Source: a bacterium | GTDB taxonomy: Bacteria > Krumholzibacteriota > Krumholzibacteriia > LZORAL124-64-63 | Reading direction: 5' to 3' | Assembly: GCA_024231905.1 (NCBI GenBank) | Contig: JAAEQC010000102.1 | Span: 234,974 to 298,973, forward strand | Length of the DNA: 64,000 nt | In this document: positions 10,566 to 55,236 of the stretch, one piece after another | How the letters are laid out: each line of letters begins with the position of its first letter | Numbering within the stretch: position 1 is the stretch's first letter | The notes under the pieces: generated by a model | Databases searched by the model: none | What the model saw: only the letters and a program-made list of their open reading frames with translations | What the model was told of the DNA's origin: nothing | Position numbers and translations under genes: made by a program

Positions 10566-10594
10566 GCCGGCCGCGCAACGTGAAGGAGAGATTC

Positions 10595-11815: not shown

Positions 11816-11852
11816 CCCTCCCCCCGGGCGACCGGGACGAGGAGGGTAATCG

Positions 11853-12260: not shown

Positions 12261-12295
12261 ACCGACGGAATTCGTTGAACGAACCGGGAGACCAC

Positions 12296-17265: not shown

Positions 17266-17496
17266 GTTCCATCCTTTCGCGGCGTTGGGTCGTGGACCGA
17301 TCCTAGCGCAGGTCCGGGCCGCTGGAAACCGTCTTCCGCACAGGGCTCCCGCCCGGGGCTGGTGCCTGGACAACCCGTGTCCCGTCTGGTAACTTGGGCC
17401 CTTCGCGGAGGCTCGGCGACCGGGTGCTCCCTGGCCGCTGCGGCGGCCGTTTGTCGTAGGGGTCTGATCGCTCTGTCCGGCGACTCCGCTCGACCG

Positions 17497-17519
17497 TTCT
17501 GTCCGATCATTCTGTCCGA
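17497..17519 (+). promoter_or_regulatory. Direct repeat TTCTGTCCGA x2 (13-nt spacing; a third TCTGTCCG copy at 17472) upstream of selA
   Basis: Seen directly in the 276-bp divergent intergenic region between the amidase and selA. Function is unknown. Confidence 0.2.
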
Positions 17520-17541
17520 CCACTGGGGGCCAACCGGTTTC

Positions 17542-30773: not shown

Positions 30774-30846
30774 TATGCGTGACCGCGGGCCGTGCGGCAA
30801 GACGGTTTCGCGGACCGGCAAGCCGGAATCGGAAGGATGCAAGATC

Positions 30847-31188
30847 ATGTCCAGGATGACGATCCCCGAGTTCCTGAAAGCGAATCCCGAGATCGACCTG
30901 CCCCTGCCGGGCGTGACCGGCTGGCTGCTCCAGGGTGAACGGCAGCAAGCGGTGGTCGTGGAATTCAACGAGACGGTGGAGGTGGCCGAGCACGATCACG
31001 CCGACCAATGGGAGATTGCGTTGTCCGGCCAGGTGGAATTGCATCGGGCGGGCGGCACCGAGGTCTACGAGGCGGGCGAGAACTTCCACATCCCGGCTGG
31101 ACAGCCCCACGGCGCCACGGTCCACGCCGGCTACAAGGCGCTCATCTTCTTTGACGAACCGGATCGATATCAGCCCAAGAAGGGTTGA
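30847..31188 (+). CDS. Cupin domain protein
   Basis: Small beta-barrel cupin motif (EHDHADQWEIALSGQVEL...GENFHIPAGQPHG). GGAAGGA RBS before ATG 30847. Confidence 0.6.
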   Translation: MSRMTIPEFLKANPEIDLPLPGVTGWLLQGERQQAVVVEFNETVEVAEHDHADQWEIALSGQVELHRAGGTEVYEAGENFHIPAGQPHGATVHAGYKALIFFDEPDRYQPKKG

Positions 31189-36767: not shown

Positions 36768-37202
36768 GTGGGCAAACGCAGAAAGGGCCGTGAGATCGTT
36801 CTCCAGTCCCTGTACGCCTCGCTGATCAACGGCGGGCCGCTGAGGGACGTGCTGGACGACCAGCTCCGGCAGCGTGAATCCGCCACCGACACGGTGGAAT
36901 TCGCCCGCGATCTGGCCCTGAAGATCTCCACCCACAAGACGGAACTCGAGACCTGGCTGGGGCAGCTCGTCAGCGGCGGCTGGAGCCCCGAGCGCGTGGG
37001 CATGGTCGAGAAGATCGTCATCACCATGGGGCTGGCGGAACTCCGATACAGCCCGGACGTTCCCTGGCGCGCGGTCATCAACGAAGCCCTCGAACTGGCT
37101 CGCCGTTTCTGCGACGAGGACGCGGTGGGGTTCGTCAACGGCGTCCTGGACAAGGCCGCCGCCCAGACCTACCCCGAGATCCGCGGCAAGGAGACCACGT
37201 GA
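36768..37202 (+). CDS. nusB: Transcription antitermination factor NusB
   Basis: GKRRKGREIVLQSLYA... is a NusB fold. GTG at 36768 with an AGGAG RBS 7 nt upstream. Sits downstream of ribH, as is common. Confidence 0.85.
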   Translation: MGKRRKGREIVLQSLYASLINGGPLRDVLDDQLRQRESATDTVEFARDLALKISTHKTELETWLGQLVSGGWSPERVGMVEKIVITMGLAELRYSPDVPWRAVINEALELARRFCDEDAVGFVNGVLDKAAAQTYPEIRGKETT

Positions 37203-37987
37203 GGGCCTCGACCCCCGGGCACTGGCAGCGCTTCTGGGAGCAGGCCGACGGCCTGGAACTGGAGGACGTCTACGGGACCGACGGCCGCATGGTACGCGAG
37301 GTCCTGAATCTGGGCGACCCGGCGGGCAAGCGCATCCTCGAGGTGGGGGCGGGCACGGGCCGCGACGCGGTGACCCTGGCCGCAGCCGGGGCCGAGGTCC
37401 TGACCCTGGACTACGTGGCCGGTTCGCTCCACCTGACCGCCAAGGCCGCCGCGGGCGCCGGCGTCACCGTGGCCACGGTCTGCGGCGACGCCCTGGATTC
37501 GCCTTTCGCCGACGGCACCTTCGACGTGGTCTTCCACCAGGGGCTCCTGGAACATTTTCGGGACACGACACCCTTGCTGACGGACAACGCCCGCCTGCTG
37601 GCGGCCGGTGGCCACCTCATCGTGGACGTACCCCAGACCTTCCACTACTACACCGTGGGCAAGAAGCTGCTCATCGCTCTGGACCGCTGGTTCGCCGGCT
37701 GGGAGACCCAGTTCACCATGGCCCAACTCGAGCAGCTGGCCGAGGCGCGCGGTCTGGAAGTCGTCCGCAGCTACGGCGACTGGATGGTGCCGGGCCTCTG
37801 GTACCGCGCCCTGCGCAAGCTCCTGCTGACCCGCCTGGGCTGGAAGCTGCCCATGCACCCGGAACCCGTGCCCGCCCTGGCGCGCCTGGGTGAACGGTGG
37901 CGCCGGTTGTTCGCCACCAAGAGACTCTCGCTGTACACCATGCCGACCATCGGGGTGGTGGCTCGCAAACCGGAGGCGAAGTCCTGA
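37199..37987 (+). CDS. Class I SAM-dependent methyltransferase
   Basis: SAM-binding motif I ILEVGAGTGRD and an acidic loop. GTG overlaps the nusB stop (GTGA). Confidence 0.7.
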   Translation: MRASTPGHWQRFWEQADGLELEDVYGTDGRMVREVLNLGDPAGKRILEVGAGTGRDAVTLAAAGAEVLTLDYVAGSLHLTAKAAAGAGVTVATVCGDALDSPFADGTFDVVFHQGLLEHFRDTTPLLTDNARLLAAGGHLIVDVPQTFHYYTVGKKLLIALDRWFAGWETQFTMAQLEQLAEARGLEVVRSYGDWMVPGLWYRALRKLLLTRLGWKLPMHPEPVPALARLGERWRRLFATKRLSLYTMPTIGVVARKPEAKS

Positions 37988-39108
37988 GACTGCTGGCCCT
38001 CAACTGGCGGGACATCAACGACCCCCTCGGCGGCGGGGCCGAGTTGCACCTGCACAAGATCCTCGCGGGGGCTGTCCAGGCGGGCTGGCACGTGGACCAG
38101 GTCTGCTGCACCTACGAAGGGGCGGAAGCGGCCGAGACGGTGGATGGGATCCACATCCACCGCCGGGGCCACTGGTCCGTGGCCAACTTCGTTCTGCCCG
38201 GGGTGGTGCGCGGCCTGCTCAAGGAGCACCGCTACGACCTGCTCCTGGAGGACATCAACAAGCTGCCCTTCTACACCCCCCTGTACAGTGGCGGCGTGCC
38301 CGTGCTGGCGGTGGTCCCGCACCTCTTCGGCACCACCGTGTACCGGGAGGCCAACGCGGTGCTGGCGTCCTACGTCTGGCTGGCCGAGCAGCTCATTCCA
38401 CCGGTCTACCGGAACGTGGACTTCGAGGTCATCAGTCCCTCCACCCGGGACGACCTGATCGCCCGCGGCCTGGACGGCGATCGCATCCGCACCGTCTACT
38501 GCGGCCTGGAGCACGAACGTTTCGCACTGGCGGACCCGCCGCCGCGTTCGGCGACGCCCCTCGTGGTTTGCTGGAGCCGCCTGCGCCGCTACAAGAGCAC
38601 CGACGTGGCCATCCGGGCCTTCGCGCGCATCCACCGGGAACTGGCCGACGCCCGTATGCTGGTCATGGGACGGGGGCCGGACGAGGAACGTTTGCGCAAG
38701 CTGGTGACCAAGCTCGGCCTGGACGACGTGGTGGACTTCCATGGCTTCATGCCCTGGGAAGAGCTCGTGGGCCATCTGCACCGGGCCCACGTCTTCCTCA
38801 ACCCGAGTCCCAAGGAGGGCTGGGGCCTGACCGTGGTCGAAGCCAACGCCTGCGGTCTGCCCGTGGTGGCCAGCGACCGGCCGGGGCTGAAGGACTCGGT
38901 GCGCGACGGGGAGACCGGCGACCTGGTGCCCTACGCCGACGACGCAGCCTTCGCCGCCAAGGCCCTCGAACTGCTGCGCGATCCGGAGCTGTGGCGGCGC
39001 CGCAGCGAGGCAGCCCGCGCCTGGGCCCGCACCTTCAGCTGGGAGCGTTGTGCCCAGGAATCCCTGGAGATCTTCGACCAGGTGGCAACCCGGGGGGCGC
39101 AGTCGTGA
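37897..39108 (+). CDS. Glycosyltransferase family 4 (retaining, GT-B)
   Basis: C-terminal EX7E-type motif (EGWGLTVVEANACGLPVVASD...GETG). The only canonical in-frame start is GTG 37897, which overlaps the methyltransferase 3' end by 91 nt, so the start is uncertain. Confidence 0.7.
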   Translation: MAPVVRHQETLAVHHADHRGGGSQTGGEVLRLLALNWRDINDPLGGGAELHLHKILAGAVQAGWHVDQVCCTYEGAEAAETVDGIHIHRRGHWSVANFVLPGVVRGLLKEHRYDLLLEDINKLPFYTPLYSGGVPVLAVVPHLFGTTVYREANAVLASYVWLAEQLIPPVYRNVDFEVISPSTRDDLIARGLDGDRIRTVYCGLEHERFALADPPPRSATPLVVCWSRLRRYKSTDVAIRAFARIHRELADARMLVMGRGPDEERLRKLVTKLGLDDVVDFHGFMPWEELVGHLHRAHVFLNPSPKEGWGLTVVEANACGLPVVASDRPGLKDSVRDGETGDLVPYADDAAFAAKALELLRDPELWRRRSEAARAWARTFSWERCAQESLEIFDQVATRGAQS

Positions 39109-40100
39109 AGCGGATCCTGGGCTTCCTGGCCAAGAGCGTGGTGAGCGGCGGTCTCATCTGGTACCTGCTCGCGCAAAGGCTCTCCCTCGACGACGTCACC
39201 GACGCGGTGGCCTCTCCCCGCTGGGGTTGGCTGGTGGCAGCCATGGTGGTCTACGGCCTGTCGGCCTTCGGGGGCGCCCTGCAGTGGTCCTGGCTGCTGC
39301 GGACGGCGGGGATCCGCGCCGCCGGCAGCGAGATCCGCCGTCTCTACTTCATCGGGCTCTTCATCAATAATTTCCTGCCGGCCAACGTGGGCGGGGACGC
39401 CTGGAAGATTGTCGATCTGGGCCGCCAGGAACAGCGCTCCTTGGGGGTCTTCTGCGCCACGCTCCTGGACCGCCTGCTCGGGTTGACGGCCCTGACCCTG
39501 CTGGCGGTGCTGGTCCTGCTGGGCGCCAGCGGCATCGGCGTACCCTTGCCGCGGACCGCCCTGTGGCTCGTGGCGGCATTGGGATTGTTGGGGGGCGGAC
39601 TGGCATTCCTGCTGTCCCGGCGTCTGGGACGCCTGTTGCCGGCCACCGCCCTGCGCTTCGGCTGGCAGAAGGGCGCGGCACGGCTGGCCCGGATCACGGG
39701 CGAATTCTCCCGCTATCGGGAGCGGGTCGCCTGGCTGAACGGCATCCTGGCCTTCAGCGTCGGCGTCCAGTTCATGCGCATGGCCACCCACGTGCTGGTG
39801 GCCTGGGGACTGGGTTTCGAACTGACCTTCGAGCAGGTGGTGCAGCTCTTCGTGCTGGTCCCGTTGCTGGCCATCAGCCTCACCCTGCCCATCGCCATCA
39901 ACGGCATCGGCCTGCGCGAATCCGTGTCGGCGAACCTGCTCACCTGGGCGGGCCTGGCCGCGCCCCAGGCCGTGGCCATGGAAGTGGCCGCCTTCCTGGT
40001 CCAGGTGATCTTCAGCCTGCAGGGCGGCGTGTTGCTCTGGCTGGGCCGGTGGCGTCGTCGAGACCCCGTAGCAGAGGAGTCGCGGAACTCCGCCGGGTGA
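39105..40100 (+). CDS. Flippase-like / lysylphosphatidylglycerol-synthase-TM-region-like membrane protein (UPF0104)
   Basis: Polytopic, roughly 8 TM helices, with motif FINNFLPANVGGDAWKI. GTG overlaps the GT4 stop (GTGA). The upstream part of ORF 37890..40100 is rejected as an alternate-frame run-on. Confidence 0.6.
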   Translation: MKRILGFLAKSVVSGGLIWYLLAQRLSLDDVTDAVASPRWGWLVAAMVVYGLSAFGGALQWSWLLRTAGIRAAGSEIRRLYFIGLFINNFLPANVGGDAWKIVDLGRQEQRSLGVFCATLLDRLLGLTALTLLAVLVLLGASGIGVPLPRTALWLVAALGLLGGGLAFLLSRRLGRLLPATALRFGWQKGAARLARITGEFSRYRERVAWLNGILAFSVGVQFMRMATHVLVAWGLGFELTFEQVVQLFVLVPLLAISLTLPIAINGIGLRESVSANLLTWAGLAAPQAVAMEVAAFLVQVIFSLQGGVLLWLGRWRRRDPVAEESRNSAG

Positions 40101-40181: not shown

Positions 40182-42932
40182 ATGGAACCGCTGTTGAACC
40201 GGCTGCGCCGGCCCCACATCCTCATCGCCGCCGGCGTCTTCGCCCTCACCTTGGGCGTGTACGTCACCACTCTCGGACCCACCATGGAGTTCTGGGACTG
40301 TGGCGAATTCATCACCACCAGCCACATCGTCGGCATCCCGCACCAGCCGGGTACGCCCATGTACGTGCTCATGGGGCGCGTCTTCGACGTGATCTTCGGC
40401 AGTCCACAGATCGACGAACCCGCCTTCCGCACCGCCTGGGCCCTGAACTTCATGTCGGCCTTCTTCAGCGCGTTGGCGGTGACCTTCGTCTTCCTGCTCA
40501 TCCGCGACCTGGCCCGGCGGGCCGACCCGGACGTCAAGTGGCTGCCCGAACTGGGCGGCGTGGTGGGCGCCCTTTTTCTGGCCTTCAGCCAGACCTACTG
40601 GAACAACGCCATCGAGGCGGAGGTGTACGGCCTGTCGGCCTTCATGCTGGCGGTGCTCTCCTGGCTGGCCGTGCGCTGGTACGACCACCGAGACCACGAT
40701 TCCAGCAACCACCTGCTCTTCCTTATGATCTACTTGCTGGGCCTGGGCGTGGGCTTCCACCTGGGCAGCGTGCTGGTCTATCCCGGCGTCTTCCTCATGG
40801 TGCTGCTGGCCAGCCGCCGCCAGTTGCCGGTCCTGGACCTCTTCCTCATGAGCGCCGGCCTGTTCGTTTTCCTGCTCTCGACCACGACCCGGGACAACGG
40901 CCTGGTCCTGCTGCTGCTCCTGGCGTACGCGGTGGTCGTGGGCGTGCGCGCCATGCAGGGCCATCGCTTCGCCCTGGTGGGCAGCGCCCTGTTCTTCGTG
41001 GGTCTGACCGTGCACGTCATGATGCTCGTGCGCGCTGGCGCCAACCCGGAGCCCCTGATCAACCAGACCGATCCGGACAACTTCGCCGCTCTCATGACCG
41101 TGATCCGGCGCGAGCAGTACCCGCCCCTGAACCCTTTCCAGCGGCAGGCGGACCTGGGCTGGCAGTACGGCTACTACTACGGCTTCCTGTTCAAGCAATT
41201 CTACTTCCTGGGCCCGGGCCACGGCCTGCTGACCGTGGTGACGACGGTGCTGGGTCCCATCTTCCTGGCCCTGGTGGGGCTCTTCCACGGGGTGCGGCGT
41301 CTCTTCCCGCTGGTGCTGATCCCCCTGGCCGGCTACCTCTTCAACGGCGAGATCCTCACCCTCTACCTGAATTTCACAGACCACGAAGTGCGCGAGCGCG
41401 ACTACTTCTATTTCGCGGCTTTCCTGTTCATGGCGGTCTTCATCGGACTGGGTGCCGCGGCGCTCATGCGCTACGCCCAGGGCGGGGAGGGCAAGAGCGC
41501 GGACCAGGTTGAGCGGGACGACGCCGACTGGCGCCGGGTGGTGCGCGCGACTCCCAGGTGGTCCGTATGGCTGGTTGCCGGAGTGCTGTTGGTAGCGGCG
41601 TTGCTACCCATAGCGCCGGGTAGCGTCAAGTACTGGGAGCACGACCGCTCCGAGAACCATCTGGCCTACGACTACGCCTGGAACATCCTGGCCGGGCTGG
41701 ACGAGAACGCCATCATCTTCACCAACGGGGACAACGACACCTTCCCCATCTGGTATCTGCAGATGGTGGAGAAATTCCGTACGGACGTGACGGTGGTGAA
41801 CCTCTCCCTGGTGAACCTGCCCTGGTACATCAAACAGCTCCGCTACCATCACGGCCTCGAGTTTTCCCGCACGGACGAAGAGGTGGACCGCCTGCGCCAC
41901 CGCATGTTCGAGGACCCGGAAACCGGGCAACGCGAACTGGTCATGATCAAGGACTACGTCGTACACGACATCATCACCACCAACCTGAGCCAGGTCGGAC
42001 GGCCCCTCTTCTTCGCTGTGACCATCCCGCAGGACAACATGAAGCGCTACTTCGCCAACCTGCGCATGGAGGGCATGGCCTACCGGCTGGTGCGGGAGAC
42101 CGCCCCGGACAACCTGCCCACCACCAACGCCGATAAGGTCATGGAGAACATGCTGGGCGTGTACCGGCTGGATTCGGTGCAGTCCGGCGATTCCGAAGAG
42201 CGCCAGCGCCGCTACGCCGCCATGGCCGGCCGTGCCTCCGACGACGGCACGATCATTCTGGGCCGGCCGGGCAAGCGGCTGAGCGCCGCGGACATGGCCG
42301 ACCTGGCCGCCGGTCTGGGCCAGCGCCGCCGGGACACCTTCCGCAGCATCAACGCCCGCCACCTGCTGGGCAACTATCCCACGGCATTCAACCGGGCGGG
42401 CTTCGACTTCATCCAGCAGTCCGAGCTGGTGGCCGAGACCGACTCGGTGGCCTACCGGGAATTGCTGGCCAAGGCGGCGACGGCCTTCGAGGCGAGTCTG
42501 GCCTTGGAGCCGTTCAACGACCACGCCATGGACTTCTACCCCCTGTTGCTGGTGCAGCTCTATCGGGACGACGACGCCCGCGACTTCCTGATCTCCCTGC
42601 GCGGCAACGTGGACGAGGCGCTGGAGGAGCAGATCATCTTCCGCACCTTCCAGGGACTGATCCAGGGCGGGTTGTCGCCCATCGCCCTGGGCTGGGCCCG
42701 CCAGTGGCGGCAGGACGATCCCGGGCGGGGTTTCTATTACATGCTCGAGTTCCGTCTCTACGAAGCCATGGACGAGCTGGCGGCCGCCAGTGCTATCGCC
42801 GACGAGTGGGCGACCGTGGACGGCGCACGCAACGCAGAGATGGACCGGTCCCTGGCCGAGATGCAGCAGCGGGCTCGGGCGCGGGATCTGGAGAACGTAC
42901 CGGCAACCGGCGGAGGCACTGATGGACAGTAG
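40182..42932 (+). CDS. DUF2723-family GT-C fold membrane glycosyltransferase (protein-O-mannosyltransferase-like / TMEM260-like) with a C-terminal helical repeat domain
   Basis: N-terminal polytopic region with the conserved FWDCGEFITTSHIVGIPHQPGTPMY segment and about 11 TM helices, followed by a large soluble C-terminal domain. Start placed at MEPLL (40182). Confidence 0.65.
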   Translation: MEPLLNRLRRPHILIAAGVFALTLGVYVTTLGPTMEFWDCGEFITTSHIVGIPHQPGTPMYVLMGRVFDVIFGSPQIDEPAFRTAWALNFMSAFFSALAVTFVFLLIRDLARRADPDVKWLPELGGVVGALFLAFSQTYWNNAIEAEVYGLSAFMLAVLSWLAVRWYDHRDHDSSNHLLFLMIYLLGLGVGFHLGSVLVYPGVFLMVLLASRRQLPVLDLFLMSAGLFVFLLSTTTRDNGLVLLLLLAYAVVVGVRAMQGHRFALVGSALFFVGLTVHVMMLVRAGANPEPLINQTDPDNFAALMTVIRREQYPPLNPFQRQADLGWQYGYYYGFLFKQFYFLGPGHGLLTVVTTVLGPIFLALVGLFHGVRRLFPLVLIPLAGYLFNGEILTLYLNFTDHEVRERDYFYFAAFLFMAVFIGLGAAALMRYAQGGEGKSADQVERDDADWRRVVRATPRWSVWLVAGVLLVAALLPIAPGSVKYWEHDRSENHLAYDYAWNILAGLDENAIIFTNGDNDTFPIWYLQMVEKFRTDVTVVNLSLVNLPWYIKQLRYHHGLEFSRTDEEVDRLRHRMFEDPETGQRELVMIKDYVVHDIITTNLSQVGRPLFFAVTIPQDNMKRYFANLRMEGMAYRLVRETAPDNLPTTNADKVMENMLGVYRLDSVQSGDSEERQRRYAAMAGRASDDGTIILGRPGKRLSAADMADLAAGLGQRRRDTFRSINARHLLGNYPTAFNRAGFDFIQQSELVAETDSVAYRELLAKAATAFEASLALEPFNDHAMDFYPLLLVQLYRDDDARDFLISLRGNVDEALEEQIIFRTFQGLIQGGLSPIALGWARQWRQDDPGRGFYYMLEFRLYEAMDELAAASAIADEWATVDGARNAEMDRSLAEMQQRARARDLENVPATGGGTDGQ

Positions 42933-43968
42933 GGAACGGACGGAGATCGTCGCTGGGCTGCCCGACACGGTGCGGCGGATCCTGGCCCCGGGGACGCCGG
43001 TGGTGGTCACCGGTTGCGCCGGCTTCATCGGCAGTTCCCTGACCGAGGTCCTGCTGGAGGCGGGTTGTGCGGTCACGGGGGTCGACTGCCTCACCGACTA
43101 CTACGACCCGGCCCAGAAACTCGAGCACATGGCCGGTTTCGCCGACCATCCGGACTTTACCTTCGTGCGCAAGGACCTGAACGACCTGGATGCCGAGGAA
43201 CTCCTGCGCGGCAAACGCGCCGTCTTCCACCTGGCCGCCCAGGCCGGGGTGCGCGCCAGCTGGGGCCGGACCTTCGACGACTACGTGGCCTTCAACATCA
43301 CCGCCACCCAGCGCCTGCTCGAGGCCTGCAAGGCACCGGATGTGGCCGCCGACCTGGTGCGCTTCGTCTACTCGAGCAGCAGCTCCGTCTACGGCGATCA
43401 GCCGGAATTGCCGGTCACGGAGAAGGCGCTGCCCCAGCCGCGCTCCCCCTACGGCGTGACCAAGATGGCCGCCGAGCACCTGAGCGTGCTCTACGCCATG
43501 AACTACGGCGTGCCCACCAGCAGCCTGCGCTACTTCACGGTCTACGGTCCCCGCCAGAGGCCGGACATGGCCTTCCGCAAGTACATCGAGGCGGCCCTGG
43601 ACGGCCGCGTCTTCCAGGTGTACGGCGACGGTGGCCAGACCCGCGACTTCACCTACGTGGGCGACGCCGTGCGCTCCAACCTCCTGGCCGTGGCCTGCGA
43701 CGAGCCTTGGGGGGTCTTCAACACCGGCGGCGGCAGCCGGGTGGCCTTCGGCGAAACCCTGGACCTGCTGCAGGAGATCCTGCGCGAGCGCGTGCCGGGT
43801 CTGGAAGCTACCGTCGAATACACCGAGACCGCCCGTGGCGACGTCCGCGACACCTTCGCCGACCGGGCCCACGTGGAAGCGGCCATCGGCTACAAGCCCA
43901 CCGTGGGTATGGCCGAGGGTCTGGCCCGCGAAGTGGACTGGGCCATGGCCAGGAGGCGTCAGGCATGA
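42922..43968 (+). CDS. NAD-dependent nucleotide-sugar epimerase/dehydratase (SDR family)
   Basis: Rossmann motif VVVTGCAGFIGSSL and catalytic YGVTK (YxxxK). Overlaps the upstream stop by 11 nt. Confidence 0.8.
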   Translation: MDSRERTEIVAGLPDTVRRILAPGTPVVVTGCAGFIGSSLTEVLLEAGCAVTGVDCLTDYYDPAQKLEHMAGFADHPDFTFVRKDLNDLDAEELLRGKRAVFHLAAQAGVRASWGRTFDDYVAFNITATQRLLEACKAPDVAADLVRFVYSSSSSVYGDQPELPVTEKALPQPRSPYGVTKMAAEHLSVLYAMNYGVPTSSLRYFTVYGPRQRPDMAFRKYIEAALDGRVFQVYGDGGQTRDFTYVGDAVRSNLLAVACDEPWGVFNTGGGSRVAFGETLDLLQEILRERVPGLEATVEYTETARGDVRDTFADRAHVEAAIGYKPTVGMAEGLAREVDWAMARRRQA

Positions 43969-44915
43969 GCGAGGGCGCAGGAAACACCGTACGCAGCGAC
44001 ATCGCCGTGGTGGTGCCCGCCTTCGACGAAGCCGAGTCCCTGCCCGAACTGGTGGAGCGCATCGCCGCGGCCATCGACGCCATGGGCCGGACCTGGGAGG
44101 TGTGGATCGTCGACGACGGTTCCGCTGACGGGACCTTCGCCGTGGTGGAGCGCTTGGCCCAGGATCGTCCGCAGGTCCACGGCCTCAGCTTCGGTCGCAA
44201 CTTCGGCAAGGCGGCGGCCCTGGCCGCGGGCTTCGAGGCCGCGTCGGCTGAACTCGTCGTCACCATGGACGCCGACCTCCAGGACGACCCGGCGGAGATC
44301 CCCCACCTGGTGGCCAAGCTGGAGGAGGGCTGGGACCTGGTCTCCGGCTGGAAGCAGGACCGCCAGGACAGTTTCATCAAGAACAACACCAGCAAGATCT
44401 TCAACTGGTTCACCAGCCGCATGTGCGGGCTCAAGCTCCACGACTTCAACTGCGGCCTGAAGATCTATCGCCGCCAGGTGACTGAACGGGTCAAGCTGTA
44501 CGGCGAGATGCACCGCTACGTGCCGGCCCTGGCCCACCTGGACGGCTTCCGGGTAGCCGAACTGCCGGTGAGGCACGCGGCCCGCAAGTACGGCTCCACC
44601 AAGTACGGCATGGCCCGCTTCATTAACGGTTTCCTGGATCTGCTGACGGTGTATTTCCTGCACGCGCGCCGCACCTCGCCCCTGCATTTCTTCGGGCGCG
44701 GAGGCATGACCTTCCTGGGTGCCGGCGGGGCGATCAGTCTCTATTTCCTGGCCTGGTGGCTCATGGGCCACGGCCTGCGCGTGCGTCCGGTCCTCGTGCT
44801 CGGACTGGTGTTCATCATCGTGGGTTTCCAGTTCATCAGCCTGGGCCTCATCGCCGAACTGGTGGTATCCGGGCGCCATCCCGAAACCGCCTACCGCATA
44901 GCCCGGCGTGTCTGA
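43965..44915 (+). CDS. GT2 polyprenol-phosphate glycosyltransferase (GtrB/ArnC/CsbB-like, membrane-anchored)
   Basis: VVVPAFDEAESL...VDDGSADGT...DADLQDDP are DXD motifs. Two C-terminal TM helices. ATGA overlap with the epimerase; AGGAGG RBS. Confidence 0.8.
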   Translation: MSEGAGNTVRSDIAVVVPAFDEAESLPELVERIAAAIDAMGRTWEVWIVDDGSADGTFAVVERLAQDRPQVHGLSFGRNFGKAAALAAGFEAASAELVVTMDADLQDDPAEIPHLVAKLEEGWDLVSGWKQDRQDSFIKNNTSKIFNWFTSRMCGLKLHDFNCGLKIYRRQVTERVKLYGEMHRYVPALAHLDGFRVAELPVRHAARKYGSTKYGMARFINGFLDLLTVYFLHARRTSPLHFFGRGGMTFLGAGGAISLYFLAWWLMGHGLRVRPVLVLGLVFIIVGFQFISLGLIAELVVSGRHPETAYRIARRV

Positions 44916-45840
44916 ACGGCGCTGCATCCCCGACCGCCGCCAGGGTTTGCCCCCCCTGGTGGCCCTGGTCGTCAACTGGAATGGACGCGACGTCCTGCCC
45001 GAATGCCTGGCCTCCCTCCAGGACGGAGGCTATCCCGGTCTCAGGGTGCTGGTGGTGGACAACGGCTCCGTCGACGACTCGGTGGCCTGGACCCGCGAAC
45101 ACCACCCGGAATGCGAGATTCTCGAGACCGGCCGCAACCTGCGCTGGGCCGGCGGCAACAACGCGGGACTCCGTTACCTGGCTGATGGGGGATACGAGGG
45201 CCACGTCCTGCTCCTGAACAATGACACGGTAGTCCCCGAGGGTAGCCTGCGGCGCCTGGTGGTGGCCCTGGACGCCAACGAGGAGGCCTGGGCGGCCACA
45301 CCACGCATCTGCTACGCCCACGACCCGGCCAGGGCCTGGTACGACGGCGGCACTGTGGGCCGGTGGAGCGGCTGGGTGCGCCATGCGGGGATCCGCAAAT
45401 TGACGGGCAAGCTGCGCATGGAAGAACGCTACGTGGACTGGGGGACCGGCTGCGCCCTGCTGCTGTCCCCGGGGGCCCTGGACGCAGTGGGCGAGTTGGA
45501 CGAGGAGTTCCACTTCTACGGCGAGGACACGGACTACTCCCTGCGCATCACCGCGGCCGGGGGCCGCATCCTGCACGTGCCGCGCTCCCTGGTCCTGCAC
45601 AAGGTGAGCGCCTCGGTGGGCGGGACCACTCCCCTGAAGCTGTGGCTGCGTAGCCGCAGCCATTTGCGCCTGCTGCGCAAGCACTGGCCCGCGCGCAGTT
45701 GGCCCGTGCTGATTCCCCTGCAGGTGGGCTACCTGGCGGGCCACGCGGGCTGGCAATTGTGGCACGGCCGGCCCGAGGCGGCCTGGGCTGTGTGGCAGGG
45801 GGTCCTGGACGAATTGAGGGGCCGGCCCTACGTGGGCTGA
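44908..45840 (+). CDS. Glycosyltransferase family 2
   Basis: LVALVVNWNGRDVL...VVDNGSVDDS...FYGEDTDYSLR is a GT2 rhamnosyltransferase-like fold. GTG start overlaps the upstream stop. Confidence 0.7.
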   Translation: MSERRCIPDRRQGLPPLVALVVNWNGRDVLPECLASLQDGGYPGLRVLVVDNGSVDDSVAWTREHHPECEILETGRNLRWAGGNNAGLRYLADGGYEGHVLLLNNDTVVPEGSLRRLVVALDANEEAWAATPRICYAHDPARAWYDGGTVGRWSGWVRHAGIRKLTGKLRMEERYVDWGTGCALLLSPGALDAVGELDEEFHFYGEDTDYSLRITAAGGRILHVPRSLVLHKVSASVGGTTPLKLWLRSRSHLRLLRKHWPARSWPVLIPLQVGYLAGHAGWQLWHGRPEAAWAVWQGVLDELRGRPYVG

Positions 45841-45895
45841 GGTTTACAGGTGCGCGCCGTCAGTGGTATCATGGTAGCTGAACAACGACAATGAC

Positions 45896-48532
45896 TTGAG
45901 CGCAATGGCGGCGCCTTCCGGGCGGCGTCCGTCGCGCCGTTGCGGATTCTGCCCGGGGGTGGATCCGGAACTTGCCCGCCGGGAGATCTCTTTGGCCAAA
46001 CGCCGCACGGACCAGGAGCGCAGCACCGCCGCGAAACCGGCGGTGCCAGCGTCCCAGTCGCCCAGGCTCCGTACCTGGCTCCTGGTGACGGGCGCCCTCC
46101 TGCTGACCCTGCTCCTGCTCTATCCCGGGGCCGCGTTCCGCGGCGAGATCTTTGGCAGCAGCGACGCGGCCAACTCCGACGCCTTCCGCCTGGCCGGCGA
46201 CCGGTCCCTGGCCGAGGGCTCATACCCCTTGTGGAATCCCTACCTCTTCGCGGGCATGCCCACCTTCGGCTCCCTGTCCTACGTACGATTCCTGTATCCG
46301 CCTTCCATCCTGCTGATGCTCCTGCAGGAAAGCCTGGGATTCCCGCCGTTGACCTGGCTGCTGGCCCACCTGCTCTTTGGCGGCCTGGGCATGGCCTGGT
46401 TCCTGTCCCGCTGGCGGTTGCCGGTGGCTACCCTCGTTCTGGGCGGCGTACTGTGGCTGTTGCTGCCCAAGGTCGTGGCTTGGGGCGTCCACGGTCACGG
46501 CACCAAACTCGGCGCTGCCATGTACCTGCCCTGGATCGTGGGCTGGGCCTGGCGGGTCCTGGACGGTGGCGGCGCCCGGGCGGTGGGCATGACGGGGCTC
46601 CTGCTGGGCCTGCAACTGCTACGGGGCCACGTGCAAATCACCTACTACACCCTGCTGCTGGTGGGGTGGCTGGCCGTGTGGAACGGCCTGTGGCCCCTGG
46701 AGGCGGCGGTCCGCGCCAGGATGGCCGTCCGCTGGCGGCGCTGCGCCATGCTGGGGGGCGGTCTGGCTCTGGGCTTCCTGGTGGGCGCCCTGCTGCTGGT
46801 GCCCGTCCACGGCTACGCGGACCTGTCCATCCGCGGCCAGGATACCTCCGGCGGCGGGGGTGTGGGCATGGACTACGCCACGGGCTGGTCCCTGGCCCCG
46901 GCGGAACTGGGCACCTTCGTGCTGCCGGCGGCGGCGGGCTTCGGGCAGGCCACCTACATGGGCCTCATGCCGTTCACCGACTACCCCAACTATCTTGGCA
47001 TCCTGTTGCTCGCATTGGCGGCCGCCGGTTGGTGGCGCGGCGACCGCAGCCTGACCGTGGCCCTGGCCGTGGCGGCGCTGCTGGCGGTGTTCGTTTCCTT
47101 CGGACGGTACGGCTTCGGTTTCTATGAACTGCTCTACCGCCTGTTGCCCTACTTCAACAAGTTCCGCATCCCGTCGATGATCCTGGTGCTCACGGGATTC
47201 GTGGCCATCGTGCTGGCGGCGCGCGGGGTCGCGGCCTGGCGCGAGGGGACGACGCCCTGGAACCGTCCAGTGGTGCTGCCGGCGGTCCTGGGCCTGGCGG
47301 GGGTGGCCCTGCTCCTGGCGGGAGCTGCGGAATTGGCCAAGGGGACCTACGCCTCCGGTCTGGAGTCCCTGGCCGCCAGGGCTGGCCGTACGGCGGTCCC
47401 GGTGCTTCTGGACACGGCGTGGGATCTGCACAAGGCCAGCCTGGTACGCATCGGCCTGATTCTCATGGCCGCCGCCTCGGCCTTGTTCTACTCCACGCGC
47501 TCGGAGGCCTTCCGCCGCGGCGGTCTGGCCTGGGTGCTGCTCGGATTGCTGGCGGTGGATCTGGCGGGCGTCGATCGCCTCGTGATCCACCCGGAAAAGG
47601 GACTGTCCACGGTGGTCGCCGACGGCTCCGGCGGCGGGCGCCTGGTATCCGCGACCAAGCTCACGGGGCTGCCGACGCGCCAGTCCGCTGAGAGTTCCCC
47701 CTTGGCCCGGACCCTGCTCGCCGAGACGGGCCACGACCGCGTGTGGCCCCTGGGACGGCAGAGCGGCATGAACACCTGGATGGCCGACGGCGTGCATTCC
47801 CTGGGCGGCTACCACCCGGCCAAGCTTGCGGGCTACGAGCAGATCCGCCGCCGCCTCTTCGGCGCCGAGCCCGCCGGCCGCCTGGCCAACTGGCTGGGGG
47901 CACGCGTGGTGGCCTGGGAGGGGACCCTCTCCCCGGCGGACCTGGACTTTCTGGACGCCACGGGCCTGGACCTGGAACGCGCCTCCCGCGGCGACGGCCG
48001 CACAGCCTTGCACCGCAACCGCGCCGCCCTGCCGCGGGCGCGTCTCGTGACCGCCTGGCGCAGGGCATCCGCGTTGCCGGAAGGGGACGCCCTGGAGCCG
48101 TTCCTGGACGCGATCCAGGCCGGCCGCCTGGACGTGACATCCACCGTGACCCTGGACCGGGAGCCCGTGCCGGCCCCCGGCGAGACCGCGAATCCCTTGC
48201 CGGCGGTGGAGTTCCTGACCGACGGCCTCAACGAGGTCGTCCTGGAAACGACGGCCCCGGTCCCGGCCCTGCTCTTGCTTGCGGACATGATGGCTCCTGG
48301 TTGGCGCGTCGAGGTGGACGGCCGCCCGGCCGAGCTGCTGACGGCCGACCTGGTGCTGCGGGCGGTGGCCCTGGAGGCCGGCCGCCACACGGTGCGCTTC
48401 CATTACAGCGACCCGTCGGTGCGGACGGGCCTCCTGCTCAGTCTGACCGGACTCCTGGGAGTCGCGGTCCTGATCCTGTTCCCCTTCCTGCGCCGCCGGC
48501 TGGCGGCGTCCCCGGGTGGCGACCATGAGTGA
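45896..48532 (+). CDS. YfhO-family GT-C membrane glycosyltransferase
   Basis: About 13 TM helices followed by a large extracytoplasmic C-terminal domain, consistent with YfhO. TTG 45896; ATG 45905 is an alternative start. Confidence 0.65.
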   Translation: MSAMAAPSGRRPSRRCGFCPGVDPELARREISLAKRRTDQERSTAAKPAVPASQSPRLRTWLLVTGALLLTLLLLYPGAAFRGEIFGSSDAANSDAFRLAGDRSLAEGSYPLWNPYLFAGMPTFGSLSYVRFLYPPSILLMLLQESLGFPPLTWLLAHLLFGGLGMAWFLSRWRLPVATLVLGGVLWLLLPKVVAWGVHGHGTKLGAAMYLPWIVGWAWRVLDGGGARAVGMTGLLLGLQLLRGHVQITYYTLLLVGWLAVWNGLWPLEAAVRARMAVRWRRCAMLGGGLALGFLVGALLLVPVHGYADLSIRGQDTSGGGGVGMDYATGWSLAPAELGTFVLPAAAGFGQATYMGLMPFTDYPNYLGILLLALAAAGWWRGDRSLTVALAVAALLAVFVSFGRYGFGFYELLYRLLPYFNKFRIPSMILVLTGFVAIVLAARGVAAWREGTTPWNRPVVLPAVLGLAGVALLLAGAAELAKGTYASGLESLAARAGRTAVPVLLDTAWDLHKASLVRIGLILMAAASALFYSTRSEAFRRGGLAWVLLGLLAVDLAGVDRLVIHPEKGLSTVVADGSGGGRLVSATKLTGLPTRQSAESSPLARTLLAETGHDRVWPLGRQSGMNTWMADGVHSLGGYHPAKLAGYEQIRRRLFGAEPAGRLANWLGARVVAWEGTLSPADLDFLDATGLDLERASRGDGRTALHRNRAALPRARLVTAWRRASALPEGDALEPFLDAIQAGRLDVTSTVTLDREPVPAPGETANPLPAVEFLTDGLNEVVLETTAPVPALLLLADMMAPGWRVEVDGRPAELLTADLVLRAVALEAGRHTVRFHYSDPSVRTGLLLSLTGLLGVAVLILFPFLRRRLAASPGGDHE

Positions 48533-49250
48533 GCGTGTGGTGAACAAGGCCGTGGTGATCGTTCCGACCTACAACGAGGCGGAGAACGTGGGCCGCCTGC
48601 TGCCGGCCATCCTCGAGCGGGACGAGCGGCTGTCGGTGCTCGTGGTGGACGACAACTCCCCGGACGGCACGGCGGACGTGGTCAAGGCCCTGCCCGGGTT
48701 CGGCGACCGGATCATGATCCTCGAACGGCCCTGCAAGGCGGGCCTGGGCGCCGCCTACATCGCCGGCTTCCAGTGGGTGCTGGCCAATACGGAGGCCGAC
48801 GCCGTCTTCGAGATGGACGCGGACTTCAGCCACGCCCCCGACGCCCTGGACGAGTTTCTGGTGGAGATCGAAACCCACGACCTGGTCCTGGGCAGCCGCT
48901 ATCTGGGCGGCATCACCGTGGTGAACTGGCCCCTGTCCCGCCTCTTCCTCTCGGTGGGTGCGAACCTCTACGCCCGCGTCGTCACCGGCATGCCCATCCG
49001 CGATTGCACCGGCGGCTTCAAATGTTTCCGCCGCACGACCCTCGAACAACTCCCCCTGGGGGAGATCAAGAGCGACGGCTATTCCTTCCAGATCGAACTC
49101 AATTACCACTGCTGGCGCCGGGGGCTGACCATCAAGGAGATCCCCATCATCTTCACGGACCGTGTGGTGGGCGTCTCCAAGATGTCGCGCCGCATCATCG
49201 CCGAGGCCATGTGGATGGTGTGGGCCCTGCGCCTGAGGCGAATCCCTTGA
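48525..49250 (+). CDS. Polyprenol-monophosphomannose synthase-like GT2 (Ppm1/DPM1-like, soluble)
   Basis: VVIVPTYNEAENV...VVDDNSPDGT...EMDADFSHAP...GSRY is a DPM1-like catalytic domain without a TM anchor. Overlaps the YfhO stop by 8 nt. Confidence 0.8.
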   Translation: MSERVVNKAVVIVPTYNEAENVGRLLPAILERDERLSVLVVDDNSPDGTADVVKALPGFGDRIMILERPCKAGLGAAYIAGFQWVLANTEADAVFEMDADFSHAPDALDEFLVEIETHDLVLGSRYLGGITVVNWPLSRLFLSVGANLYARVVTGMPIRDCTGGFKCFRRTTLEQLPLGEIKSDGYSFQIELNYHCWRRGLTIKEIPIIFTDRVVGVSKMSRRIIAEAMWMVWALRLRRIP

Positions 49251-49270
49251 CCGGGGGCAACCTGTTTCCG

Positions 49271-51382
49271 GTGAAGCTGGCCGTGGTCATCGTCCACTAC
49301 AACACGAGCGACGACCTGGCCCGCTGTCTGGAATCCCTGAACGCCTACGGGCCGCCGGACGACTTCCGGATCGTGGTGGTGGACAACGCCTCCCGCGACG
49401 AGGGCCTGGCCGAGGTGCACCGCCGCTTCCCCGACTGTGAGTGGATCTTCAACGCGGACAACCAGGGCTACTCCCGCGGCTGCAACCGGGGCCTCGCCGC
49501 AGTGGAGGCCGAGTACTACCTGCTGCTCAACCCGGACGTGGTGGTCAAGCCCGGGGCCCTGGCCCGCCTGCTGGAATTCGCCGACGCCCACCCGCGGGCG
49601 GGCATCATCGGTCCCCAGTTGTTGAACGAGGACGGCACCATCCAGCATTCGTGCCGGCGCTTCTACACCTTCTGGACCCTGGTCCTGCGCCGCACCTTCC
49701 TGGGCAGGCTCTTCCCGGACAGCCGGCCGGTCCGGCGCCATCTCATGCAGGACTTCGACCACCGCTCGGCCCGTCCGGTGGACTGGCTCCTGGGCGGCTG
49801 CCTGCTTGTGCGCCGCAGCGCCGTCGATCGTACCGGCCCCATGGACGAGCGTTTCTTCCTCTACTTCGAGGACGTGGACTGGTGCTACCGCATGTGGCGC
49901 GCGGGCTGCGAGGTTCTCTACACCCCCGACGCGCGCTTCGTCCACCGACACAGGCGTTCCAGCGCCCAGGGCGCCACGAGCCGTTCCTTCTGGTTGCATC
50001 TGGGCTCCCTCATCTCCTTCTACGAGAAGTGGGGCGCGCTGGTGTGGCTGTTCAAGAAGTGGCGGGATCCCCTGCTGCTGTTCGTCATGTGGCTGCTGGA
50101 CATGACCGGCCTGGCGGCAGCCTTCGGACTGGCCTACGGGCTGCGAAATCTGGGGCACGACCTCTTCCCCGAGCAACTCTACCCCTTCGCCGAGTACCGG
50201 CCCCTGCTCCTGTTCGGGCTACTGCTGGCGACCCTCACCTTCGTCCTGGCGGGACGCTACCGCGGCGAGCATCTGCGCCGGCGGCGATCCGTGGTTGAAC
50301 ACCTGCAACAGACGGGCATCGTGGCGGTGCTCATGCTGGCCAGCACGTACCTGGGACACCTGGAGGTGGTCAGCCGGGCGGTGCTCCTGATGTTCGTGCC
50401 GCTGCTGGTGGTTTTCACGGCCCTGGGGGACGGTCTGGTGCGGCGCGTGCTGCGGCGGCTGGAACGCGGACACCTCTCCCTGGAACGCACGCTGCTGGTG
50501 GGACCGGCAGCGGTCTGGCGCACCTGGCTCGACCGGGCCGGGGACCTGGCGGCCCAGGGGGTCGACGTGGCCGGCTTCGTGGACGATCCGGGCGCCCTGG
50601 AATCGTTGCCGCCCCTGGCGGGTGGCACGGTGCCCTGGCTGGGCCGCCCGGCCGAGGCCGCGGACGTGGCCGAGCGGTACCGCATATCCCAGGTAGTGTT
50701 CCGGGATCTGCCGCCGCCGGGCGATCCCCTGTGGACGGCCGTGGGTGCCCTGCGCCGCATGCGAGTCCGCCTGCGCTGGCAGGGGGACGGCGTGTGGCTC
50801 CTGGCGGCTGCCACGCGCATGGAAGTCTTCGGAGGCGGGCTGAGCGCAGTTCAGGGCCAGGCGGGACGGCGAGCGGCCGGAGCCCTGGGGCGCCGTTTGT
50901 GCGGCGCGGTGGCGGGACTGCTGCTGGGCGTGGCGGCAGCGCTGCCCTGGGCCTGGTTGCGGCTGGTGGATGTTCGGCAAGGGCGTGCGCGGATCGACCG
51001 TGTGACCGCCTGGGACCGCTGGCGCGGGGGCACGCCCCTGGTACTCGCCTTGGCCACCGACGGCCAGGTGAAAGGTCTGGTCTGGCAGTGGCCGCTGGCC
51101 TGGTCCCTCCTGACCGGACGGGTGGCCATGTGGGGCGAACAAGCCCGGGCGGACGGGCCGCCGCCTCCGCCGCCGACCACCGGGGACCTCATGGATTTCT
51201 GGCGCGCCGAACCGGCGCCGCCGGGTTTGACGGGCGCCTGGGCGGCAGCCGGGGGAGGCGGCCGGCTGCGGGCGATCTGCGCTCGCCTGTGGCGCGATCC
51301 GGGCGGATTCGGTAACGTCGCGGAAACAGTACGAGCTAGGGAAGTCGTCGAGAAGGACCCTCCGGGCACCGAGGTGGAATGA
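49271..51382 (+). CDS. Fusion protein: N-terminal GT2 glycosyltransferase plus C-terminal multi-TM and CoA-binding-like module resembling the non-catalytic N-terminal half of WcaJ-type sugar transferases
   Basis: GT2 motifs (VVIVHYNTSDD, VVVDNASRDEG, FYFEDVDWCYR). Then 4-5 TM helices and LLVGPAAVWRTWLDRAGDLAAQGVDVAGFVDD...RISQVVF. No Bac_transf catalytic domain. GTG 49271; TTG 49247 is an alternative start. Confidence 0.65.
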   Translation: MKLAVVIVHYNTSDDLARCLESLNAYGPPDDFRIVVVDNASRDEGLAEVHRRFPDCEWIFNADNQGYSRGCNRGLAAVEAEYYLLLNPDVVVKPGALARLLEFADAHPRAGIIGPQLLNEDGTIQHSCRRFYTFWTLVLRRTFLGRLFPDSRPVRRHLMQDFDHRSARPVDWLLGGCLLVRRSAVDRTGPMDERFFLYFEDVDWCYRMWRAGCEVLYTPDARFVHRHRRSSAQGATSRSFWLHLGSLISFYEKWGALVWLFKKWRDPLLLFVMWLLDMTGLAAAFGLAYGLRNLGHDLFPEQLYPFAEYRPLLLFGLLLATLTFVLAGRYRGEHLRRRRSVVEHLQQTGIVAVLMLASTYLGHLEVVSRAVLLMFVPLLVVFTALGDGLVRRVLRRLERGHLSLERTLLVGPAAVWRTWLDRAGDLAAQGVDVAGFVDDPGALESLPPLAGGTVPWLGRPAEAADVAERYRISQVVFRDLPPPGDPLWTAVGALRRMRVRLRWQGDGVWLLAAATRMEVFGGGLSAVQGQAGRRAAGALGRRLCGAVAGLLLGVAAALPWAWLRLVDVRQGRARIDRVTAWDRWRGGTPLVLALATDGQVKGLVWQWPLAWSLLTGRVAMWGEQARADGPPPPPPTTGDLMDFWRAEPAPPGLTGAWAAAGGGGRLRAICARLWRDPGGFGNVAETVRAREVVEKDPPGTEVE

Positions 51383-55226: not shown

Positions 55227-55236
55227 GGGCGCGGCG

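Follow-up and report, generated by a model that had tools for sequence, protein, structure and literature searches.

Which sugar would be carried across the inner membrane, and onto what, by three coupled genes found in an uncultured bacterium of the Fibrobacteres-Chlorobi-Bacteroidetes (FCB) group? The question is raised by a stretch of 64,000 nucleotides of the Krumholzibacteriota contig JAAEQC010000102.1 (the whole stretch analysed, hereafter the window). A preliminary description, made from the letters of the DNA, had pointed there to a DUF2723 protein, an NAD-dependent epimerase and a membrane-anchored glycosyltransferase that together could make a nucleotide-sugar epimer, load it onto a lipid-phosphate carrier and transfer it in the periplasm. 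In our reading, which draws on sequence comparisons and structural models and to which we give a rough probability of 0.45, the three genes would be the central part of a glycosylation pathway that depends on a lipid carrier and acts in the periplasm, with galacturonic acid (GalA) as the sugar and a protein as the acceptor. The genes are the following:

40182..42932, + strand, start ATG 40182: gene 1, a 916-residue GT117 (TMEM260-like/DUF2723) glycosyltransferase of the GT-C class, type I (see below)
42922..43968, + strand, start ATG 42922: gene 2, a 348-residue extended short-chain dehydrogenase/reductase (SDR), UDP-glucuronate 4-epimerase-like
43965..44915, + strand, start ATG 43965: gene 3, a 316-residue membrane-anchored family 2 glycosyltransferase (GT2), ArnC/GtrB-like polyprenol-phosphate sugar synthase

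Real frames were chosen by the GC content of third codon positions, which reaches 0.87-0.90 in all three, as expected of true genes in this genome (GC ~70% in the window). The preliminary description had placed the genes correctly to the base in their frames, stops and overlaps: the ATG of gene 2 at 42922 overlaps the end of gene 1, stop included, by 11 nt, and genes 2 and 3 meet in an ATGA at 43965-43968. The coupling extends past this triad, with an 8-nt overlap between gene 3 and the GTG (44908) of a further GT2, here called GT2b, which is the last gene of the run that begins at gene 1.

A bacterial relative of TMEM260

Human TMEM260, the CAZy family GT117 enzyme, O-mannosylates the IPT domains of plexins, cMET and RON in the endoplasmic reticulum. 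Its glycosyltransferase nature was recognised only in 2023, and its loss leads to a severe congenital syndrome. In the searchable literature we found no study of a bacterial GT117/DUF2723 protein, DUF2723 being mentioned there only for the human enzyme. The DUF2723 relatives of gene 1 nonetheless amount to hundreds of sequences across the FCB superphylum, and one NCBI record labels one of them 'glycosyltransferase family 117 protein'.

The product of gene 1 matches PF11028 (TMEM260-like/DUF2723) over residues 39-211 with E = 2.4e-45 and 154.9 bits, the curated cut-off being 24.2, and its sole solved relative by sequence is human TMEM260 (9RQL; E = 2.7e-14, or 5.8e-22 with a profile). Both matches uphold the DUF2723 GT-C identity that had been given to the 916-residue protein. 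Structure prediction, which had been put forward as a check, returned a confident AlphaFold (AF2) model from 44 homologues (pLDDT 85.7, pTM 0.83), with a GT-C fold around a core of 11 transmembrane (TM) helices. These helices correspond to 11 hydrophobic segments within residues 1-478, followed by a periplasmic alpha/beta (Rossmann-like) domain at ~485-660 and an all-helical repeat domain of the tetratricopeptide (TPR) kind at ~720-910; no Pfam match was obtained for these C-terminal halves. With the predicted N-in topology, the first loop, a motif at 397-408 and the C-terminal domains would all lie in the periplasm. Gene 1 therefore carries what defines GT117, namely the GT-C fold with an 11-helix TM core and a luminal-type Rossmann-like domain that bears the catalytic-base Asp and precedes the TPR domain.

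A cryo-EM preprint describes TMEM260 as an 11-TM GT-C 'wrist', a Rossmann-like 'palm' and TPR 'fingers', with D52, H67, R264, Y267 and R355 binding the donor, D441 as the catalytic base, and an extended peptide held in the palm/fingers half (bioRxiv 10.64898/2026.03.17.711096). The human enzyme is a protein O-mannosyltransferase for which D52 is essential (PMC10214176), and its donor is Dol-P-mannose (PMC10214176; bioRxiv 10.64898/2026.03.17.711096). HMMER alignments equate D52, E55, H67 and D441 of TMEM260 with D39, E42, H54 and D517 of gene 1, which are invariant in 44 close and 82 broad homologues; every published key residue of TMEM260 that can be aligned is thus invariant in the bacterial family. 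R310-x-x-Y313 and R404/R406 are invariant as well and, judging from their spacing and position, are plausibly the counterparts of R264/Y267 and R355. The first periplasmic loop, where the absence of an acidic residue had been named as the result that would count against the preliminary description, contains the invariant D39 and E42, and the description therefore survives its own test. We hold it as almost certain that gene 1 encodes a GT-C enzyme of the TMEM260 family.

Making and loading the donor

Gene 2 matches the Epimerase and GDP_Man_Dehyd families of Pfam (E = 1e-49 to 1e-52), and its best solved relatives are the UDP-glucuronate (UDP-GlcA) 4-epimerase of Bacillus cereus, UGAepi (6ZL6, E = 7e-68), and MoeE5 (6KV9, E = 2e-60), followed by WbgU/WbpP (~1e-42) and GalE (~1e-37). 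In the alignment with 6ZL6 the Ser/Thr cluster STSS reads SSSS, the equivalents of Y149, K153, T178 and R185 are conserved, and a block of 17 residues, LRYFTVYGPRQRPDMAF, is identical. The same active-site signature occurs in 11 of the 13 syntenic SDRs that were checked. In UGAepi, the Ser/Thr network and R185 hold the carboxylates of substrate and product, and mutational loss of this stabilisation converts the enzyme into a decarboxylase (PMC12338863). Because of its top solved relatives and the conserved carboxylate-binding signature, gene 2 is probably a UDP-GlcA 4-epimerase, predicted to interconvert UDP-GlcA and UDP-GalA. The NAD-dependent SDR epimerase announced earlier is in this way not only confirmed but sharpened to a UDP-GlcA 4-epimerase-like enzyme, with 6ZL6 and 6KV9 as top matches and Arg185 kept.

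A different sugar has to be considered at this point, either because the SDR would act on UDP-Glc/Gal or UDP-GlcNAc/GalNAc or because the substrate of gene 3 would have nothing to do with the SDR product. The matches to WbgU/WbpP and GalE speak for it, as do the lack of any NCBIfam equivalog cut-off reached by gene 2 (the best models being generic SDR ones, below their cut-offs), the absence of a nearby gene for UDP-glucose 6-dehydrogenase (Ugd), and the case of PgfE, a 4-epimerase tied to N-acetylhexosamine glycosylation in the analogous Pgf system. However, UDP-GlcA 4-epimerase is the better match by 25 orders of magnitude, and Arg185, the Ser/Thr network and the block shared with 6ZL6 are all conserved, with the signature recurring in the syntenic SDRs, which leaves a sugar other than GalA as an unlikely choice.

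Gene 3 (Pfam Glycos_transf_2, E = 1.5e-30) aligns over its full length with ArnC (9BHC, E = 2e-59, residues 12-300 to 9-295), the DAD motif (DADLQ) and the C-terminal TM region included. Further matches are to GtrB (5EKE, E = 5e-29) and to the NCBIfam model of PgfS (E = 1e-37), and a hydrophobic segment lies at 278-296. A GtrB/ArnC-like synthase with C-terminal TM helices is what had been claimed for this GT2, and the full-length similarity to ArnC bears the claim out. Like GtrB, ArnC and dolichol-phosphate-mannose synthases (DPMS), it has a GT-A domain with a DXD motif plus juxtamembrane and C-terminal TM helices; the protein is very probably a polyprenol-phosphate sugar synthase. ArnC itself was considered and rejected, with a score of 199.9 bits set against the equivalog cut-off of 529 (NF007986) and none of arnA, arnB, arnD or arnT present in the window.

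Two synthases and two transferases in one cluster

The triad lies within a glycosylation cluster at ~37.2-57.6 kb, flanked by rib/nusB and mraZ/mraW/PBP genes. The order begins with a methyltransferase, a family 4 glycosyltransferase (GT4), a flippase-like gene, genes 1-3, GT2b, a YfhO-family gene and GT2c, and continues with a GT2/WbaP-like fusion, a beta-propeller protein with a C-terminus of the type IX secretion system (T9SS) kind, a FemAB-like acyltransferase and a Wzx/MurJ-like protein. The neighbours that matter for the argument are:

37897..39108, + strand: GT4 glycosyltransferase (Pfam Glycos_transf_1, E = 1e-38)
39105..40100, + strand: candidate flippase, a stand-alone MprF-type (PplT/UPF0104) membrane protein (PF03706, E = 2e-30; TIGR00374)
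44908..45840, + strand: GT2b, a soluble GT2, consistently located between the ArnC-like gene and the YfhO-like one
45843..45872, + strand: sigma-70-like promoter motif TTTACA-18-TATCAT with an extended -10 (10/12 matches)
45992..48532, + strand: YfhO-family GT-C of 846 residues with a beta-rich periplasmic domain (module B; AF2, Foldseek)
48516..49250, + strand: GT2c, a soluble DPMS-like GT2 that overlaps the YfhO-like gene by 17 nt (module B)

With two carrier-sugar synthases and two GT-C enzymes in the same cluster, the pairing of gene 1 with gene 3 needed testing. On the side of module B, the YfhO-like protein (an identical protein is named 'YfhO family protein' by NCBI) is, as its model indicates, a genuine GT-C (AF2 pLDDT 83.3; Foldseek matches to AftD, ArnT, PglB and Emb at probability 1.00). 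GT2c matches the Dol-P-Man synthase of Pyrococcus (5MLZ, E = 2.5e-23) over the entire catalytic domain and has no TM segment. A cross-pairing is thus conceivable, in which GT117 would use polyprenol-P-mannose or -glucose made by GT2c, the SDR and the ArnC-like enzyme would supply the YfhO-like GT-C, and the adjacency of genes 1-3 would be incidental. It draws on the use of Dol-P-Man by TMEM260, on the DPMS-like nature of GT2c, and on the match of gene 3 to PgfS, given that the Pgf operon offers the precedent of an epimerase and a GtrB-like GT2 next to a YfhO-type GT-C.

Related loci were gathered in two sets. The first comprises 80 genome loci chosen by their DUF2723 gene and examined by iterated hidden Markov model (HMM) searches with the window proteins; it covers Krumholzi-, Eisen-, Latesci- and Zixibacteria, KSB1, Calditrichota, Marinimicrobia, Cloacimonadota, Chlorobi, Bacteroidota, Ignavibacteria, Gemmatimonadota and Fibrobacterota. 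The second comprises 80 metagenome loci chosen by their YfhO-like protein, where the ~31 fully visible contigs share one invariant order: GT4, flippase-like, DUF2723, SDR, ArnC, (GT4), GT2b, YfhO, GT2c and GT2-fusion. Taken together, 37 complete loci keep the DUF2723-SDR-ArnC triad in identical order and tightly abutted, with junctions of -14 to +23 nt and a single one of +84, distances that are biased toward small values by the choice of the nearest possible start codon. Because the same order and tight junctions recur in 37 loci, the arrangement is far beyond chance.

The genome loci show a looser picture. GT4 is the most constant neighbour of DUF2723, adjacent in ~32 of the 80 loci and in many phyla, and the flippase-like gene adjoins DUF2723 or the ArnC-like gene in ~27 of them, as it does in nearly all complete metagenome loci; in the genome set both accompany DUF2723 more regularly than the SDR and the ArnC-like GT2 do. 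An SDR-ArnC pair directly follows DUF2723 in ~12 of these loci, and an ArnC-like gene without SDR is found in ~6 more. A YfhO-like gene occurs in only seven, directly before GT2c wherever the downstream sequence is visible. All seven also carry an ArnC-like gene, and 12 loci combine GT2c with DUF2723 in the absence of both ArnC-like and YfhO-like genes, two further points for the cross-pairing. A large GT-C hidden in these 12 loci was looked for and rejected, as just small open reading frames (ORFs) or 9-10-TM proteins of ~450 residues were present.

Against the cross-pairing, GT2c invariably adjoins or overlaps the YfhO-like gene, as seen in more than 55 related loci, and in L152 and L153 the pair stands without DUF2723, SDR or ArnC genes within 8.7 kb upstream. 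Conversely, five loci (L010, L018, L019, L061 and L071) have an ArnC-like gene beside DUF2723 and no YfhO-like GT-C, three of which (L018, L019 and L071) also lack GT2c. Moreover, the SDR-ArnC pair abuts DUF2723 and not the YfhO-like gene in 37 of 37 complete loci. With the GT2c-only loci all belonging to a different type of DUF2723 protein, as described below, we regard the cross-pairing as very unlikely, and gene 3 probably feeds gene 1. The earlier idea that the DUF2723 protein, the SDR and the GT2 work together is supported, with synteny and a subfamily motif in favour of their pairing. The module is not self-contained. Genes 1-3 are without a flippase of their own and are part of a conserved cluster of ~10 genes.

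Two types of DUF2723 proteins

An alignment of 82 DUF2723 proteins separates two types by a motif found where the tenth TM segment begins on its periplasmic side, beside an invariant R-x-R-D-Y. Type I, associated with ArnC, has N-F-x-x-x-E-V together with A499, even in four distant members, and type II, typical of loci with GT2c only, has N-Q-x-x-P-Q-P together with S499. DUF2723 has an ArnC-like gene as neighbour in 17 of 30 type-I loci versus none of 42 type-II loci (Fisher p = 9e-9, a value that overstates the support, the loci being phylogenetically non-independent). Gene 1 of the window is of type I, and ArnC-like genes accompany no other type, a gene context that suggests a donor other than polyisoprenyl-P-mannose for type I. 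When the motif columns are left out, a neighbour-joining tree still groups type II in one bipartition. Since Ignavibacteria, Latescibacterota and Gemmatimonadota each contain both types, paralogy seems a better explanation of the split than taxonomy alone. The location of the motif, at what would be the donor contact equivalent to R355 of TMEM260, fits different donors for the two types, and residues 398-403 are candidate determinants of donor specificity. More speculatively, a mannose-type donor made by the DPMS-like enzyme would serve the sister type II, which is found in Bacteroidota, Chlorobi, KSB1 and others.

Some type-II loci show peculiarities of their own. In four KSB1-like and related loci (L011, L016, L026 and L070), the flippase-like gene comes after two type-II DUF2723 paralogues in tandem, a duplication that suggests two acceptors or linkages. 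In eight type-II loci (L015, L016, L017, L025, L030, L033, L052 and L070), an ORF of ~300 residues, weakly SDR-like (HMM score 29-44), consistently precedes GT2c. In a further related locus, L050, DUF2723 is split at 9896-12419 into ORFs of 489 and 396 residues in an otherwise intact cluster, as a result of a frameshift or pseudogene, or of an assembly error.

A proposed pathway and its acceptor

The pathway would start in the cytoplasm, where the SDR of gene 2, as its homology and conserved active site suggest, would epimerise UDP-glucuronate to UDP-galacturonate. Gene 3, anchored by its C-terminal TM region, would then load the sugar onto undecaprenyl (polyprenyl) phosphate at the inner leaflet; the class of this enzyme is well supported, and the choice of sugar comes from the adjacency of the genes. 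The lipid-linked sugar would next be flipped, the best candidate for this step being the MprF-type protein at 39105-40100. In the periplasm, the TM core of gene 1 would hold the donor by means of D39, H54, R310/Y313 and R404/R406, and an inverting transfer would take place to a hydroxyl activated by D517 of the Rossmann-like domain. Fold and residues are established for this step, and the chemistry is taken over from TMEM260. The last and weakest link is the acceptor, most likely a Ser/Thr in an extended segment of an exported protein.

The flippase candidate has seven hydrophobic segments, and its gene ends 81 nt upstream of gene 1 and is joined to GT4 by a GTGA junction. No flippase of the GtrA/GtcA or ArnE/F type was found in a search of the annotated cluster genes and the window. 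PplT domains are frequently fused to GT-A or GT-B domains, and in gpgSDF and hexSDF the UPF0104 flippase-like proteins are proposed glycolipid flippases paired with a GT4. By analogy with such proteins, which pair or fuse with glycosyltransferases, the MprF-type protein is the best flippase candidate for the module. GT4, which gives a weak match (E = 1e-11) to a GlcNAc-PG synthase model, may take part in the synthesis of a glycolipid or of the acceptor.

With respect to the acceptor, a protein would be the most likely one because the Rossmann-like and TPR half of gene 1 shares the plan of TMEM260; we give it about even odds. The same donor pathway could instead serve a glycolipid of the membrane, with GT4 as its synthase and the MprF-type protein as its flippase, or a glycan assembled by the other cytoplasmic glycosyltransferases of the cluster and exported by the Wzx-like protein, in a scheme like the conversion of phosphatidylinositol mannosides (PIM) to lipomannan, the addition of GalA or 4-amino-4-deoxyarabinose (Ara4N) to lipid A, or the decoration of O-antigens or teichoic acids. 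GT4 and the flippase-like gene are more constant across FCB phyla than any carrier-sugar synthase. GT4 + UPF0104 pairs are known glycolipid synthase/flippase systems, PplT fusions to GT-A or GT-B domains agree with such a role, and the cluster has three more cytoplasmic GT2s, the GT2/WbaP-like fusion and the Wzx/MurJ-like protein. This alternative has to face, however, the periplasmic half of gene 1, which follows the TMEM260 plan, peptide-gripping in the human enzyme, and conserves the catalytic Asp. TPR domains are generally peptide binders, and the glycan-type YfhO-like GT-C has instead a beta-sandwich-rich, AftD-like periplasmic domain. We see a non-protein acceptor as a somewhat unlikely outcome.

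Several observations weigh against the pathway ending in GalA and a protein. The homology to TMEM260 and the presence of a DPMS-like GT2 in the cluster would predict a mannose-type donor, and in 12 loci type-II DUF2723 genes have no carrier-sugar synthase nearby other than GT2c. Gene 3 is far under the ArnC equivalog cut-off, and its sequence does not reveal which sugar an ArnC-like enzyme uses. A search of the 64-kb window for Ugd found none. The type-I-specific residue E402 is acidic and offers no obvious ligand for an anionic uronate. The sugar-contacting residues, tried as donor discriminators, were rejected since they are invariant in both types. The pairing of R310/Y313 with R264/Y267 is presumed from spacing and position, and not from a tool alignment. 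Two loci (L010 and L061) have both synthases and just one GT-C. All related loci come from metagenome-assembled genomes or metagenomes and are phylogenetically non-independent. Finally, the constant presence of GT4 and the flippase-like gene is no less compatible with a lipid or glycan acceptor than with a protein. The broader proposal that type-I bacterial GT117 enzymes are protein O-galacturonosyl (hexuronosyl) transferases, installing an acidic sugar from an MprF-flipped polyprenol-P donor and related to the metazoan TMEM260 pathway, is advanced as a speculative and rather improbable one.

Comparison with known systems

Human TMEM260 shares with gene 1 the PF11028 domain, the 11-TM GT-C core followed by luminal or periplasmic Rossmann-like and TPR domains, and the donor-site Asp and His and the catalytic base (D52/H67/D441, here D39/H54/D517). 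Unlike it, the bacterial protein is ~200 residues longer and of low similarity, only two stretches being alignable (E = 2.7e-14), its carrier would be of the undecaprenyl type instead of dolichol, and its predicted donor would be the product of an ArnC-like synthase, coupled to an epimerase for UDP-GlcA, and not of a DPMS.

Among bacterial systems, the proposed chemistry has its closest functional parallel in the Rgt system of Rhizobium/Mesorhizobium (the bactoprenyl-P-GalA synthase RgtE and the GT-C enzymes RgtA-D and RgtF), where UDP-GalA is converted to polyprenyl-P-GalA for a periplasmic GT-C. LpsL is the UDP-GlcA 4-epimerase there. The Rgt transferases are, in contrast, ArnT-like and act on lipid A and the lipopolysaccharide core. 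Rhizobia have the genes at scattered sites; in the window they are joined to a GT117 gene by translational coupling. The Pgf operon of Streptococcus mutans (PgfS, PgfE, PgfM1/PgfM2) likewise joins an epimerase, a GtrB/ArnC-like GT2 and GT-C enzymes, and carries out extracytoplasmic protein O-glycosylation of Ser/Thr-rich segments. It differs in its YfhO-family transferases, its N-acetylgalactosamine (GalNAc) and its Gram-positive host, as well as in the epimerase, which is UGAepi-like in our case.

The synthase, flippase and GT-C logic is also that of GtrA/GtrB/GtrC and CsbB/GtcA/YfhO, with the GtrB structure 5EKE matching gene 3 at E = 5e-29; here, though, no small GtrA/GtcA flippase is seen, the candidate is of the MprF type, and the GT-C belongs to another family. 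The pathway of ArnC, ArnE/F and ArnT is further away: gene 3 scores 200 where 529 bits are required, there are no arnA/B/D genes (formyltransferase, aminotransferase and deformylase) and no ArnE/F, and gene 1 belongs to GT117 instead of GT83 and carries a large Rossmann-like plus TPR region that sets it apart from ArnT. As for gpgSDF of Pseudomonas aeruginosa and hexSDF of Clostridioides difficile, they resemble the cluster in their pair of GT4 and UPF0104/PplT proteins, GTGA-coupled here, but the window has no deacetylase with it, the pair is joined to a GT-C cluster, and the match to GlcNAc-PG synthase is weak.

The module is thus a real system that follows the known three-component logic of periplasmic glycosylation. 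What is new is its GT117 transferase, the coupling to a UGAepi-like enzyme and an MprF-type protein as candidate flippase. A compact operon that links donor synthesis with transfer makes the donor sugar of a bacterial GT117 predictable. If the acceptor is a protein, it would be a further bacterial O-glycosylation system; if a lipid or glycan, an envelope glycoconjugate common to many uncultured phyla. In addition, stand-alone MprF-type flippases would gain a concrete candidate cargo.

Minor features of the cluster and the window

The region 45992-49250 can be seen as a second, separable glycosylation module, formed by GT2c and the YfhO-like GT-C, which carries a C-terminal TM helix. The promoter-like motif listed above sits in a 55-nt gap that precedes the YfhO-like gene, and may mark the boundary of two transcription units, modules A (genes 1-3) and B; it was the one suggestive site of a scan for promoters and terminators that gave 2 promoter-like sites in 18 kb versus 0.9 expected, and whose consensus may not apply to this phylum. 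Directly 3' of GT2c, as in most loci, a gene at ~49268-51382 encodes a GT2 domain fused to an N-terminal TM and CoA_binding_3 region typical of WbaP/WcaJ. It matches positions 2-240 of 445 in TIGR03025, the catalytic C-terminal half apparently being unmatched.

At the other end of the cluster, a SAM-dependent methyltransferase gene (37199-37987) shares an ATGA-type overlap with the nusB stop and runs into the GT4 start, which may mean that the cluster is co-transcribed with nusB, or that the sugar is methylated. An 802-residue protein encoded immediately 3' of the GT cluster (51379-53787) combines Reg_prop beta-propeller repeats with a C-terminal match to a PorZ/T9SS model (E = 2e-11), and suggests a type IX secretion system in this organism. 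It is followed by ~1.4 kb (53790-55236) with long ORFs on both strands and no Pfam match, the signal of third-position GC being clear only for 53643-54089 (- strand). Elsewhere in the window, a SelA (selenocysteine synthase) domain occupies residues 481-846 of an 869-residue ORF (16357-18966), which has either a long N-terminal extension or an over-called start codon. A 1342-residue hybrid sensor kinase with a Reg_prop propeller, PAS, HisKA/HATPase and receiver domains (26940-30968, - strand) is among the very few minus-strand genes of the window.

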